4,025 nt of DNA from a virus (IMGVR_UViG_2585427756_000014:1-4025); one strand, 5' to 3'; shown: positions 1-4,025, numbered from the stretch's first letter. The notes: generated by a model not told the origin, from the sequence alone. Program-made: numbers and translations.

Positions 1-541
1 TCCCTTCGCGCTGGCTGAAGTTTTCGCGGTAAGTGATCGCCTCCTGCACTGTCTTGCAGCCATACGCTGACAGGTAAGCAAATCCACGCAGGCTTTGCGC
101 CACGCTCAGCAACTCAGTAGCTACCGCCTTGGTGTCGTGGCCTGGCACGCCGAGAATGCGCGGTTTAACGCCGAGCTGTGACTGGGCAGATAACAGGGCT
201 TTCATACCTGTTTTTTTACCTTCAGCAGTCACTGCGCCGATGATATTGGTCGTGGTTTCGTCTTCCGTTTCACCCTGCGGCACACGCACAACAATGGTCA
301 CGGGTTTTGCCTGGTCAGCGATGGCATCCAGCGAACGGGCCAGCGTACCGGACTCCCCCGCTTTACCGCTGGCAGTCAGCACATCAGTGATCAGCACGGG
401 TTTATTAAGAGGAAACATTTTTGCATCGGCATCATCGCCCGTGCAGACCATACCCACGATGGCGGTGCTCACCGTGGTAATGGATCGGGTGCCTTCGTTG
501 ATTTCAACAACGCGCACCCCGTGGTGGTAATCCTGAGCCAT
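1..541 (-). CDS. Contractile phage tail sheath protein (P2 gpFI-like), N-terminal 180 codons; partial, continues beyond window start
   Basis: Minus-strand frame from ATG at 539-541 is open to position 1. Translation begins [35 protein letters not shown]..., which closely matches my recollection of the P2 FI sheath N-terminus (MSDYHHGVQVLEINEGTR...). AGGAGG lies 9 nt upstream of the ATG. The plus-strand ORF 129-530 is antisense to it. Confidence 0.85.
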
Positions 542-617
542 AGCGGCGAACCTCCTGATTGGATTAGGCTTCGCCCTATGTTGAAGTGATTGTGCCCGAC
601 AAACAGCTAAGTGTAGT

Positions 618-635
618 TGTACAGTTATTCACACA
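618..635 (-). promoter_or_regulatory. TGT-N12-ACA dyad, candidate P2-type late-promoter activator (Ogr/Delta-family) binding site upstream of the sheath gene
   Basis: The sequence tgtgtgaataactgtaca (read on the sheath coding strand) has its centre about 85 bp upstream of the sheath ATG. The motif and its position in the intergenic region ahead of the FI-like gene fit P2/P4 late promoters. No strong -10 or -35 was identified. Confidence 0.4.
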
Positions 636-683
636 AAATGACGGTATTTGTCTACTTGCAGGGATAATCAAAATTATGCTGAT

Positions 684-1250
684 TCAGGGGGATTCACTGC
701 TCTTATTTGCCGGAAATTTTCTATAAATGGTAGAAACGCCCACATCAAAAATCAGTGCAATACGCTGTCTTGATTCTCCGGCCTCGAGTAAACGTCCAAT
801 CTGTGCCCACTGTTCGGTGGTCAACTTAGGACGGCGTCCACCTACTCTGCCTTTGGCACGAGCTGCAGCCAGCCCTGCCCTGGTTCGTTCAACTATCAGT
901 TCGCGTTCCATTTCAGCCAGAGCCCCCATGACATGAAAAAAGAAACGGCCCATTGGGGTACTGGTATCAATACTGTCAGTCAGGCTTCGGAAATTCACAC
1001 CACGCTGGCGCAACTCTTCTATCAGCGTAACAAGATGCCGCATACTGCGACCCAGTCTGTCCAGCTTCCAGACAACCAGCGTGTCTCCTGCCGATAGTGT
1101 CCTGAGCAGTTTTTTAAGCCCCGGTCTGTCGGACTTAGTGCCACTGATTTTGTCCTCAAAAATCCGGTCACATCCCGCGCAGTTCAGTGCATTACGTTGC
1201 AAATCGGTGTTCTGGTCATTTGTTGACACGCGTACATAGCCAATAAGCAT
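684..1250 (-). CDS. Serine DNA invertase, Hin/Gin/Pin/Cin family (copy 1 of 2, identical to copy 2)
   Basis: Translation MLIGYVRVSTNDQNTDLQRNAL...DTLVVWKLDRLGRSM...MGRFFFHVMGALAEMERELIVERT...GGRRPKL...IFDVGVSTIYRKF contains the resolvase/invertase catalytic domain with the serine in the YVRVST motif and a C-terminal helix-turn-helix. The longest ORF extends to 1295 ([15 protein letters not shown]...), but the family-typical start is the MLIGY methionine at 1250, preceded by a GGGGG Shine-Dalgarno-like run. Confidence 0.9.
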   Translation of the reverse strand: MLIGYVRVSTNDQNTDLQRNALNCAGCDRIFEDKISGTKSDRPGLKKLLRTLSAGDTLVVWKLDRLGRSMRHLVTLIEELRQRGVNFRSLTDSIDTSTPMGRFFFHVMGALAEMERELIVERTRAGLAAARAKGRVGGRRPKLTTEQWAQIGRLLEAGESRQRIALIFDVGVSTIYRKFPANKSSESP

Positions 1251-1277
1251 GAGCATCCCCCTGAATAAAAACCGGAG

Positions 1278-1850
1278 ATGATGCCAGTTAGCCATTATCT
1301 CTGCATTTTCATAAACGTTGGTTTGGGAGAAGGTGCTCCAGCTATTGGCGTTCCGTTCTTCTGGCCGTCCGCCGCAATGCCAAATACTGTAATCGACAGT
1401 TGGTCCAGTATGGTGTTTTTGAAGTTCAACGGCGCGAAATTCTCTGCCACTGATTACCCTGTGCTGGCGAAAGTGTTTCCGGCGCTAGCATTACCTGACG
1501 CACGGGGTGATTTCATTCGTATCTGGGATGATGGGCGCGGGATTGATGTCGGACGTACCCTACTTTCAGGGCAATCACACACAATTATGGATCATGCACA
1601 CAATATGGAGTTGTGGACGGGGGACGGGCTTGCCGCAGGAAGTGCACGGGAGGGAGTAAACCCAGGAATACTGGCCACATACGGTGACGGGGGAATAGTT
1701 AAAACGGACGAACCCGGTCTTAAGGTGCCTTCCTCACTACGAGCTCTTAGCTCTCGTAGTGTTAAACGTTATGGTGAAATTAGTGGAAATGTAGATACAG
1801 AAACCCGTCCACGAAATATTGCATTTAACTTTCTGGTGAGGGCTAAATAA
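1278..1850 (+). CDS. Tail-fibre C-terminal variable (receptor-binding) cassette A, 190 aa; orphan, lacking the constant N-terminal shaft region
   Basis: The ORF crosses the crossover site and ends ...GNVDTETRPRNIAFNFLVRAK, resembling the C-terminal motif of Mu S / P2 H-type tail fibres. Its stop overlaps the start of the downstream chaperone gene. An in-frame stop lies 4 codons upstream of the first ATG, and that ATG sits antisense to the invertase 5' end, so no N-terminal constant domain is attached. Confidence 0.65.
   Translation: MMPVSHYLCIFINVGLGEGAPAIGVPFFWPSAAMPNTVIDSWSSMVFLKFNGAKFSATDYPVLAKVFPALALPDARGDFIRIWDDGRGIDVGRTLLSGQSHTIMDHAHNMELWTGDGLAAGSAREGVNPGILATYGDGGIVKTDEPGLKVPSSLRALSSRSVKRYGEISGNVDTETRPRNIAFNFLVRAK
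1306..1331. other. Left 26-bp crossover site, gix/hix/cix-like (invertase recombination site)
   Basis: The sequence ttttcataaacg-tt-ggtttgggagaa has two imperfect inverted 12-bp half-sites around a central dinucleotide. The right half matches my recollection of gixL in 10 of 12 positions. The site straddles the repeat/unique boundary and lies in the tail-fibre reading frame (encodes CIFINVGL). Confidence 0.55.
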
Positions 1851-2443
1851 TGAAACCTGTTTTTGATGAAAATGGGCTGGCTACAGTGCCGGGCGATATG
1901 CGTTGTTTTTATTATAATGCAGTAACGTATGAATATACCGGCTGGTCTGATGAATATATTAATACTGGCGTAAGTATACCCGCCTGTTCCACTGGTATTG
2001 ACCCGGGCGAAAACATTCCGGGAAAAGTGGCAGTATTTACGGGTAAGGGATGGAGCCATGAAGAAGACCATCGCAATGAGACCGTTTACTCAACTGAAAA
2101 TGGCGCAGCTGTTACAGTGGATTATATCGGTGCCATCAAAGACGGTTATGTCACGCTTTCACCGTTAACGCCATACGATAAATGGGATGGTGAGAAATGG
2201 GTGACGGATACCGAGGCACAGCATAGCGCCGCAGTAGAAGCGGCAGAAGCACAGCGCCAGTCGCTGATTGATGCTGCAATGGCTTCCATCAGTCTGATTC
2301 AACTGAAATTACAGGCTGGGCGGAAGCTGACGCAGCCAGAAAACACCCGACTTAACGCTGTGCTGGATTACATTGACGCGGTGACGGCAACAGATACCAG
2401 CACAGCGCCGGACGTCATCTGGCCTGAACTGCCGGAGGCGTAG
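1850..2443 (+). CDS. Tail-fibre assembly chaperone A (Tfa / Mu U / P2 G family), 197 aa
   Basis: Translation MKPVFDENGLATVPGDMRCFYYNAVTYEY...DKWDGEKWVTDTEAQ...LDYIDAVTATDTSTAPDVIWPELPEA has the N-terminal and C-terminal motifs (DTSTAPD-IEWP-like) of lambda Tfa-type assembly proteins. It is translationally coupled to cassette A. Confidence 0.85.
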   Translation: MKPVFDENGLATVPGDMRCFYYNAVTYEYTGWSDEYINTGVSIPACSTGIDPGENIPGKVAVFTGKGWSHEEDHRNETVYSTENGAAVTVDYIGAIKDGYVTLSPLTPYDKWDGEKWVTDTEAQHSAAVEAAEAQRQSLIDAAMASISLIQLKLQAGRKLTQPENTRLNAVLDYIDAVTATDTSTAPDVIWPELPEA

Positions 2444-2855
2444 GCCATTCAATATCTGGCGCACCGGAAGTATCGACCAGTTCCAGTGCGTCCAGATAAT
2501 CCAGCCACAAATTATATTGCGCCAGTTCCTCACCTTTCAGCCGGCCAATAGCCGCTTTACCAGGCCATTGTTTACTGTTCATATAATCGTTGGCCTGATT
2601 AATCAGTTGCTGCTTTTCCAGTTCGGCTGCAGCAATCTGTTCCTCATGTGTTGGTGGTGGAATTTCAGACCATGCAGGAAAACCATTTTCTCCAGCGATA
2701 CGGATTTTTCCTTTCGGCGGTAATCCGGAAAACTCAATATACACTTGCTCATCAACTTCAACAGCATCATCTGGCCATGAGTCAGCTTGAGTGTAATCCT
2801 CTTTCATCTCCAGCGGATAGAAAGAGTTTGTAGTCGCGGAATATATGTAATTCAT
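2415..2855 (-). CDS. Tail-fibre assembly chaperone B (Tfa family), 146 aa
   Basis: Translation MNYIYSATTNSFYPLEMKEDYTQ...NLWLDYLDALELVDTSGAPDIEWPTPPAVQAR carries the conserved Tfa C-terminal motif. GGAG lies about 6 nt upstream of the ATG. Its 3' end overlaps the convergent chaperone A gene by 29 bp. Confidence 0.85.
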   Translation of the reverse strand: MNYIYSATTNSFYPLEMKEDYTQADSWPDDAVEVDEQVYIEFSGLPPKGKIRIAGENGFPAWSEIPPPTHEEQIAAAELEKQQLINQANDYMNSKQWPGKAAIGRLKGEELAQYNLWLDYLDALELVDTSGAPDIEWPTPPAVQAR

Positions 2856-2876
2856 TTTTCACTCCATATAGCTAAA

Positions 2877-3269
2877 TTAACAGCCTAACGCTAAAAATGA
2901 AGCGCCGAGGCCAGGAGTACTGGCTCTGGATATAAATTTAACCGGGTCGGGACTAAAACCTGCACAGGCAATATAACCAACAGCCCCGCTATCTGGTGTG
3001 TAGTCTTGTGAGACCAAAACACGCAGACATCTGTTTGGAAATGCAATCGGGAAATGGGTTACTACATCCTGTGCAATGCCTGGTGCGCCGATTGAGCCCC
3101 ACTGAAGAATAAAACCTGATGGTAATTTTTGATATCCAGTACCTGAAACAGAAAGCGTGAAGCTACCCATATCAGGTATCTGATTCGCCCCTGTCCCTAC
3201 ATTCCTTTTAGCCGCTTTTCCCAAACCAACGTTTATGAAAATGCAGAGATAATGGCTAACTGGCATCAT
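2877..3269 (-). CDS. Tail-fibre C-terminal variable cassette B, 130 aa; orphan, lacking the constant N-terminal region
   Basis: It shares the first 17 codons ([17 protein letters not shown], encoded by the repeat and crossover site) with cassette A, then diverges completely ([15 protein letters not shown]...[17 protein letters not shown]...). It lies immediately upstream of chaperone B on the same strand. The tail-fibre tip assignment is by context and composition, not by a strong motif. Confidence 0.6.
3216..3241. other. Right 26-bp crossover site, gix/hix/cix-like
   Basis: This is the mirror image of the left site. The outer half-site is identical, and the inner half-site differs at one position (ggtttgggaAaa versus ggtttgggaGaa on the other side). 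Coordinates are +/-2 bp. Confidence 0.5.
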
Positions 3270-3296
3270 CTCCGGTTTTTATTCAGGGGGATGCTC

Positions 3297-3863
3297 ATGC
3301 TTATTGGCTATGTACGCGTGTCAACAAATGACCAGAACACCGATTTGCAACGTAATGCACTGAACTGCGCGGGATGTGACCGGATTTTTGAGGACAAAAT
3401 CAGTGGCACTAAGTCCGACAGACCGGGGCTTAAAAAACTGCTCAGGACACTATCGGCAGGAGACACGCTGGTTGTCTGGAAGCTGGACAGACTGGGTCGC
3501 AGTATGCGGCATCTTGTTACGCTGATAGAAGAGTTGCGCCAGCGTGGTGTGAATTTCCGAAGCCTGACTGACAGTATTGATACCAGTACCCCAATGGGCC
3601 GTTTCTTTTTTCATGTCATGGGGGCTCTGGCTGAAATGGAACGCGAACTGATAGTTGAACGAACCAGGGCAGGGCTGGCTGCAGCTCGTGCCAAAGGCAG
3701 AGTAGGTGGACGCCGTCCTAAGTTGACCACCGAACAGTGGGCACAGATTGGACGTTTACTCGAGGCCGGAGAATCAAGACAGCGTATTGCACTGATTTTT
3801 GATGTGGGCGTTTCTACCATTTATAGAAAATTTCCGGCAAATAAGAGCAGTGAATCCCCCTGA
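3297..3863 (+). CDS. Serine DNA invertase, Hin/Gin/Pin/Cin family (copy 2 of 2, identical to copy 1)
   Basis: Same 188-aa product as copy 1 (MLIGYVRVSTNDQ...). The longest ORF starts at 3252. This copy is on the plus strand, reading away from the invertible segment toward the sheath gene, as in P2-like prophages where the invertase occupies the slot between tail-fibre and sheath genes. Confidence 0.9.
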   Translation: MLIGYVRVSTNDQNTDLQRNALNCAGCDRIFEDKISGTKSDRPGLKKLLRTLSAGDTLVVWKLDRLGRSMRHLVTLIEELRQRGVNFRSLTDSIDTSTPMGRFFFHVMGALAEMERELIVERTRAGLAAARAKGRVGGRRPKLTTEQWAQIGRLLEAGESRQRIALIFDVGVSTIYRKFPANKSSESP

Positions 3864-3911
3864 ATCAGCATAATTTTGATTATCCCTGCAAGTAGACAAA
3901 TACCGTCATTT

Positions 3912-3929
3912 TGTGTGAATAACTGTACA
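3912..3929 (+). promoter_or_regulatory. TGT-N12-ACA dyad, candidate P2-type late-promoter activator site (mirror copy)
   Basis: The sequence tgtgtgaataactgtaca has its centre about 85 bp upstream of the sheath ATG at 4006. It lies in the pin-sheath intergenic region. Confidence 0.4.
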
Positions 3930-4005
3930 ACTACACTTAGCTGTTTGTCGGGCACAATCACTTCAACATAGGGCGAAGCCTAATCCAATCAGGAGGTTCG
4001 CCGCT

Positions 4006-4025
4006 ATGGCTCAGGATTACCACCA
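4006..4025 (+). CDS. Start of a second tail sheath (FI-like) gene copy; only the first 7 codons (MAQDYHH) fall in the window
   Basis: Identical by inverted-repeat symmetry to the first 20 nt of the minus-strand sheath gene at 522-541. AGGAGG lies 9 nt upstream. It is too short to judge on its own. Confidence 0.5.

Follow-up and report, generated by a model that had tools for sequence, protein, structure and literature searches.

Invertible fibre segments in described phages and the composition of the window

The closest described systems are the G segment of Mu with its invertase Gin, the C segment of P1 with Cin and the P segment of e14 with Pin. In these systems a small serine recombinase acts at 26-bp sites with a 2-bp core, and two tail-fibre C-terminal cassettes, each with its own chaperone, lie in mirror orientation, one of them continuing the frame of a constant N-terminal part. 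The locus studied here shares these features. Unlike in Mu, P1 and e14, the host phage is P2-like, the constant part is that of P2 H (PF12571), and the invertase gene separates the segment from the sheath gene FI. The underlying system, in which a P2-like (Peduoviridae) prophage of E. coli switches its host range with a Gin-type invertase, is already known and is textbook material. An isolated phage of this kind, Escherichia phage Cartapus (NC_070909.1, Peduoviridae, Elveevirus), has the order W-J-I-H-tfa, tfa'-orphan cassette, Gin-like invertase and sheath-tube, and is 96.4% identical to the flank of the window at the nucleotide level. The window is the whole stretch of DNA that was analysed, 4,025 nt from IMGVR_UViG_2585427756_000014. 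Cartapus and the prophage on the complete chromosome OZ038772.1 each have one invertase and an intact, fused H, whereas in the window the H constant region is replaced by a second invertase arm, a mirror image of the first. The features of the window are listed in Table 1.

Table 1. Features of the window, with positions counted from its first nucleotide
Feature	Position	Strand	Description
Tail sheath gene, P2 FI-type, 5' 180 codons	2-541	-	Pfam Gp18_domIII_N and Phage_sheath_1; in the probable fold-back arm
Left arm of the inverted repeat	522-1328		807/807 complementary to 3219-4025
Invertase copy 1, Gin-family serine DNA invertase	684-1250	-	188 aa; Resolvase, HTH_7
Cassette A ORF	1278-1850	+	190 aa; Pfam, weak Collar match only
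Crossover site beside cassette A	1306-1331	+	26 bp; TTTTCATAAACG TT GGTTTGGGAGAA; core 1318-1319
tfaA, assembly chaperone of cassette A	1850-2443	+	197 aa; Pfam Caudo_TAP, 1.2e-27
tfaB, assembly chaperone of cassette B	2415-2855	-	146 aa; Pfam Caudo_TAP, 8.4e-38
Cassette B ORF, gp53-like C-terminal receptor-binding domain	2877-3269	-	130 aa; Pfam Gp53-like_C, 4.4e-15
Crossover site beside cassette B	3216-3241	-	26 bp; invertase-side outer half and core as in the site beside cassette A; inner half GGTTTGGGAAAA; core 3228-3229
Right arm of the inverted repeat	3219-4025		In the public contig, the arm goes on into a complete tail-gene cluster
Invertase copy 2, identical to copy 1	3297-3863	+	188 aa; Resolvase, HTH_7
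Tail sheath gene start (MAQDYH...)	4006-4025	+	Cut by the window end; full gene on this side in JOSM01000180.1 (L023)

As shown in Table 1, each cassette is accompanied by its own chaperone gene in the mirror arrangement of a Gin-type switch, with tfaB convergent to tfaA and overlapping it by 29 nt. The earlier note had described both cassettes as orphaned, without a shaft domain, in frames that open about nine codons outside the site and antisense to the invertase, with an in-frame stop just upstream and no convincing ribosome-binding site. These observations were confirmed. Pfam found no shaft domain in either ORF and gave only the weak Collar match for cassette A and Gp53-like_C for cassette B. 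Each cassette ATG lies 28 nt (9.3 codons) outside its crossover site, on the strand opposite to the invertase and within the leader that precedes the invertase start, and an in-frame TAA is located four codons upstream of it, at 1266 for cassette A and at 3281 for cassette B. The motif GGAG stands 0 nt from the first ATG and 3 nt from the second, and no well-spaced Shine-Dalgarno sequence was present. A promoter and terminator scan of the window returned fewer promoter-like sites than were found in shuffled sequence, none of them relevant to the orphan ORFs, and no sigma-70-like site was directed into cassette A or B.

The first 17 residues are common to the ORFs at 1278-1850 and 2877-3269 because both ORFs begin in the antisense invertase leader and the outer half-site. 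About 14 leading codons of cassette A would consist of this leader and half-site, placing its true start at about 1320 (GLGEGAPAIG...), and the true cassette B would span from about 3227 downwards. Cassette A is a silent C-terminal fibre cassette of a weakly collar-like type. It occurs fused after ...LGLGE in other genomes (L003, L006, L012), in P2-like, Mu-like and e14-like prophages, and a protein identical to tfaA (197 aa) is present in Mu-like and e14-like prophages. NCBIfam held no family for either cassette or either chaperone.

The invertase matched Resolvase (3.3e-53) and HTH_7 (1.4e-15) in Pfam and the structure of Mu Gin (3UJ3) with E=2.6e-92 over 184 aa (residues 1-184), while only sub-threshold matches were obtained in NCBIfam. 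It contains the motif YVRVSTNDQ, which agrees with the serine-recombinase catalytic pattern YVRVSTxxQ. Copy 1 was extended to 1295 by the ORF lister, and in relatives the gene is annotated with 567 nt. In the Gin, Cin and Hin systems the Fis-dependent recombinational enhancer lies within the 5' portion of the invertase gene, and an enhancer of this type is expected in cis here, from homology with Gin; Fis sites are too degenerate to be recognised reliably in coding sequence.

The two crossover sites are imperfectly palindromic, stand in inverted orientation and share the central dinucleotide TT/AA, as in Gin-type systems, and they fit the 26-bp sites (Phi2 sites and consensus) tabulated in PMC4134206, Table 3. 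In the natural locus on OZ038772.1, the H-side site is TTCTCGCATACC TT GGTTTGGGAAAA. The inner half-site stays with its cassette, GGGAGAA with cassette A and GGGAAAA with cassette B, which is what exchange at the core would produce. The site at 3216-3241 is the invertase-side outer half joined to the inner half of cassette B, that is, the junction of the other inversion state.

Positions 522-1328 and 3219-4025 are perfect reverse complements of each other (807/807), and mismatches begin at 1329 and 3218, so that the inner boundary of the identical arms falls inside the crossover site. The repeat finder gave the inverted repeat as 816 nt (522-1337 and 3210-4025). The repeat reaches the right end of the window. 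Because the flanks are mirrored, the invertase gene occurs twice in the window and the start of the sheath gene lies on both sides. That both flanks are the same DNA had not been mentioned in the earlier note. A repeat arising by chance is excluded by the 807 consecutive complementary bases.

Two inversion states and the public draft contig

Positions 1-3229 of the window are 100.000% identical to OZ038772.1; the match takes in the right site's core dinucleotide up to its last base and goes no further. Beyond the core, OZ038772.1 continues with the H-side outer half-site given above and then with the 350-aa constant part of H. The H of this chromosome is intact, with 466 aa and the domains Phage_tail_fib and Gp53-like_C, and its frame runs without interruption from the 350-aa constant part through the site into cassette B. 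Its C-terminal 116 aa are identical to cassette B of the window, and the tfaA product is likewise the same in both. The earlier note had pointed to an uninterrupted frame leading from an N-terminal fibre domain across the left site as the arrangement that would contradict it; such a frame was found in OZ038772.1, but across the right site and not the left.

Positions 1979-4025 are 100% identical to the draft contig JNQN01000132.1, in which the segment is turned the other way and cassette B lies orphaned next to the invertase. Both orientations of the segment were therefore seen, state 1 in OZ038772.1 and state 2 in JNQN01000132.1, and as the two parts of the window match them at 100%, the window is the sum of two documented states. 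Judged by these identities, each junction of the window is a true product of inversion. The gene order in complete genomes and long contigs was V-W-J-I-H-tfa, tfa'-orphan cassette, invertase and sheath-tube, as in P2, with one invertase. Among the loci with an identical invertase, a single invertase gene was present in all ten (10/10); the layout was standard in eight of them, and the segment had been lost in the other two.

When the 130-aa orphan product was looked up by exact match, only two contigs contained it, one of which was JOSM01000180.1, a contig of 213,870 nt from the draft assembly GCA_000713695.1. The terminal 4025 nt of this contig match the window at 4024 of 4025 positions, and the sole difference is a synonymous base at 1978. 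This difference may indicate that the same fold-back is present in a second assembly, either as a recurrent artefact or as a feature of the lineage. The arms in JOSM01000180.1 are 1328 nt each (4724-6051 and 7942-9269 as counted in L023) and are identical throughout (1328/1328). The outer arm, which corresponds to window positions 1-1328, stops at the end of the contig, at contig base 1 and 541 nt into the sheath gene, as would be seen in a fold-back, and the other arm runs on for about 210 kb through complete sheath, tube and tape measure genes. The long side of the contig shares 99.98% identity with OZ038772.1, where the layout is the normal one. That the outer arm ends after exactly 1328 nt was counted against the fold-back reading. 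A full-text literature search for the JOSM and JNQN assembly accessions returned no relevant paper. The two 81-nt junction sequences had no exact match in a scan of viral contigs, and the 59-nt sequence of leader and site had none in representative genomes and metagenome contigs.

These comparisons indicate, with high confidence, that the window is a fold-back chimera of an ordinary host-range switch, that of a P2-like prophage, in its two inversion states. The double orphaning of the cassettes is accordingly very probably not a real feature, and positions 1-1305 are a probable spurious mirror copy. The window holds no constant N-terminal fibre part, having an invertase arm on both flanks, and this difference from Mu, P1 and e14 would likewise be due to the fold-back. 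Of the three readings that the earlier note had offered, that of a mis-assembled flank agrees with the palindrome and the contig end, while those of a non-functional locus and of a constant region located elsewhere were not supported, the constant part of H in OZ038772.1 being directly adjacent to the right site.

The true order would be V-W-J-I-H(constant), then a segment bounded by the two sites and made up of cassette and tfa followed by tfa' and cassette', then invertase and sheath. The Gin-family serine invertase is predicted to flip this segment of about 1.9 kb by exchange at the 2-bp core of the two 26-bp sites, and each flip would exchange the cassette that continues the frame (...LGLG E/K...) of the 350-aa constant part of H. 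The assembler probably passed from the invertase flank into the segment at the junction belonging to one orientation and, at the far end, crossed the junction belonging to the other, so that it re-entered that flank on the complementary strand. Such a path would put both cassettes in the silent, invertase-proximal position and leave out the constant region; the single junctions would be real, and only their combination on one molecule would be spurious. The mis-join itself we infer from sequence rather than from reads, and it may have been caused by mixed orientations in the sequenced DNA or by two copies in different states. A hairpin read from a missed adapter was considered as the cause and is less likely, since the fold point falls exactly on the recombination sites and both junctions are of the kind that inversion produces.

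Assembly errors of a related kind have been described. In E. coli EC958, about 50% of the reads carried a flipped prophage fibre segment, which gave rise to spurious alternative contigs, and the authors warned of artefactual duplications and mis-annotated cassette fragments (PMC4134206). Palindromic contigs, which are reverse complements of themselves, are a recognised error of short-read assembly (PMC9455707). The window would resemble EC958 in that the assembler was misled by a culture in which the invertible fibre segment was present both ways round. In EC958 the alternative state appeared as a separate contig, whereas in the window the two states are joined in one fold-back contig.

Mirror layouts in other genomes and competing readings

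Mirror layouts were searched for in finished genomes and in related prophage loci. None of 5426 complete E. coli genomes covered more than 80% of the window. A synthetic mirror query was made from a 2479-nt tube-sheath-invertase arm and its own reverse complement, and none of the 1637 complete E. coli genomes that matched it exceeded 62% coverage. For the reciprocal mirror query, J-I-Hconst, none of 1181 matching genomes exceeded 50% coverage. Comparable fold-backs were found in about 3 of 80 related IMG/VR loci, all of them on draft-derived contigs (L050, L098 and L042), with arms that stop within the crossover site or at an N. In L050, a single cassette occurs in two junctions, one with the half-site of the H side and one with that of the invertase side, and 802 nt are present twice; L098 represents the second case, and L042, with an N at the join, is the third.

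Two complete genomes, NZ_CP182374.1 and NZ_CP070071.1 (L105, L106), resemble the window in having the segment between two invertases and both cassettes orphaned. NZ_CP182374.1 combines two different P2-like tail modules, and NZ_CP070071.1 combines a P2-like arm with a pinE/ssrA-side arm. Their arms are heterologous and belong to two different prophages, with nucleotide identities of about 80% for the invertase and about 67% for the sheath, and the contexts differ beyond the arms. Their reciprocal junctions were not recovered with the J-I-Hconst query.

These head-to-head double-invertase loci lend some weight to a reading in which the mirror layout of the window is real. Near-identical copies of a P2-like prophage, or sister chromosomes, would have exchanged either at the sites, through the invertase, or within homologous segments; both cassettes would then be truly silent, and a reciprocal segment with two H constant regions would exist elsewhere. 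A version with identical arms is indistinguishable from a fold-back by sequence alone. We nevertheless consider this reading improbable. In the known real cases the arms are heterologous, each in its own context, whereas the arms of the window are 100% identical and one of them stops at a contig end in JOSM01000180.1; arms derived from different prophages, each with its own context, were not found in the window. A homologous-arm mirror of either kind was absent from all complete genomes matched by the two queries, and OZ038772.1 carries the near-identical prophage in its normal arrangement.

Still less probable, and only marginally credible, is a degenerate fibre locus, in which the constant part of H was lost or moved and a defective prophage remnant with a non-functional switch was left behind. 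Deletion variants with the same invertase do exist, as in L016, where H is truncated at 387 aa and the segment is missing, and in L013, which lacks the H region. However, these variants have neither the segment nor a second invertase, and loss of H would not produce a perfect mirror copy of invertase and sheath. Furthermore, both cassettes and both chaperones of the window are intact, and the products of cassette B and tfaA are the same as those of OZ038772.1.

It is equally hard to credit that translation from the ATGs in the invertase leader yields the 190-aa and 130-aa products as receptor-binding proteins in their own right: although these ORFs are regularly reported as CDS by gene callers and PGAP, under the names 'phage tail protein' and 'gp53-like domain-containing protein', and GGAG does precede the ATGs, the spacing of that motif is poor, promoter-like sites into the cassettes are lacking, the shaft and attachment domain are missing, about 14 leading residues are antisense leader and half-site that are replaced by ...AGLLAYLGLG in the fused protein, and such calls are annotation artefacts according to PMC4134206.

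A fold-back of two inversion states is thus the reading we prefer, and its main value is as a caution. Both orientations of an invertible fibre segment occur together in a single culture, and assemblers can merge them into mirror-image contigs, which have a duplicated invertase, lack the shaft gene and display plausible "orphan" fibre ORFs that pipelines name as proteins. Contigs of this type occur in public draft genomes and in prophage catalogues built from them, where they can make pangenomes too large or give the impression of defective phages. If the mirror were real, both receptor-binding cassettes would be locked silent and a reciprocal double-constant locus would have been created, and the window would be the identical-arm version of the heterologous double-invertase loci of the two complete genomes. 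If, instead, mixed orientations caused the mis-join, both orientations would have been present in the sequenced DNA, that is, the switch would be active.

Fold-backs and double-invertase loci at the fibre switch

Similar fold-backs and duplications round the same switch were observed in three related draft-derived prophage contigs, the IMG/VR UViGs L050, L098 and L042, which suggests that the fold-back at the fibre switch is an artefact recurring in public catalogues. An arm size of about 1.3 kb was common to L098 and L023, the locus in draft contig JOSM01000180.1. Loci with an invertase gene on each side of the invertible fibre segment, and with both cassettes orphaned, were genuine in two complete E. 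coli chromosomes (L105 and L106). The arms of these loci were from different prophages and had an identity of about 80%. In one of the two genomes the arms were two P2-like tail modules, arranged head-to-head, and in the other a P2-like arm was joined by a pinE/ssrA-side arm. These layouts are probably large inversions between segments of two prophages. A J-I-Hconst mirror query of complete genomes found no reciprocal junctions of the L105 and L106 hybrids.

Positions of features in the window and in related loci
Feature	Sequence	Positions	Remarks
Double-invertase locus	L105, NZ_CP182374.1:2232038-2243790	4684-7811 of locus	
Double-invertase locus	L106, NZ_CP070071.1:125005-136761	4682-7863 of locus	
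Fold-back	L050	1355-5830	904-nt arms, 802-nt direct repeat
Fold-back	L098	1-7746	1317-nt arms, 1874-nt direct duplication
Fold-back	L042	1-3876	782-nt arms, N at join
Segment lost	L016	4556-6001	
Segment lost	L013	5143-6001	
Silent cassettes annotated as complete proteins	window	1278-1850, 2877-3269	
Silent cassette annotated as complete protein	L001	6281-6850	
Silent cassette annotated as complete protein	L012	4485-4877	
tfaA	window	1850-2443	197 aa
tfaA/tfaB overlap	window	2415-2443	29 nt
Imperfect inverted repeat	window	2362-2379, 2488-2505	18 nt
Differing base of the inner half-sites	window	1329, 3218	GGGAGAA, GGGAAAA

Sequence details of the invertible segment

The sole mismatch between the window and JOSM01000180.1 was base 1978, which was A in the window and in the complete chromosome OZ038772.1 and C in JOSM01000180.1, a synonymous change (ATA/ATC) in tfaA. 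Draft contig JNQN01000132.1 ended exactly at window position 1979, suggesting a branch point from a second, slightly different segment copy in those genomes. The arm reported by the repeat tool as "816 nt, 100%" contained mismatches past 1328. The inner half-sites differed at one base, and cassette A is therefore read with an E after LGLG, cassette B with a K. The convergent chaperone genes tfaA and tfaB overlapped at their 3' ends, and this overlap was flanked by an imperfect inverted repeat. Rather than being a terminator, this repeat appears to derive from the homologous C-terminal motifs LDYIDA and LDYLDA, whose coding sequences are on opposite strands.

Deletion derivatives and annotation of silent cassettes

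L016 and L013, both carrying an invertase identical to that of the window, are deletion derivatives of the switch that have lost the invertible segment. In L016, the fibre gene H was cut to 387 aa with the invertase directly downstream, and the genes upstream in L013 were an unrelated integrase/excisionase. In the output of PGAP and gene callers the silent cassettes stood as whole proteins under the names "phage tail protein" and "gp53-like domain-containing protein", with the annotated start at the ATG in the antisense invertase leader. These calls are a systematic annotation artefact.

Spread of the invertible module

A TfaA identical to that of the window and near-identical cassettes were found in P2-like, Mu-like and e14-like prophages (loci L002-L011). 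The whole invertible module is common to unrelated phage backbones, and in principle such sharing was already known (PMC4134206, citing Sandmeier 1994).
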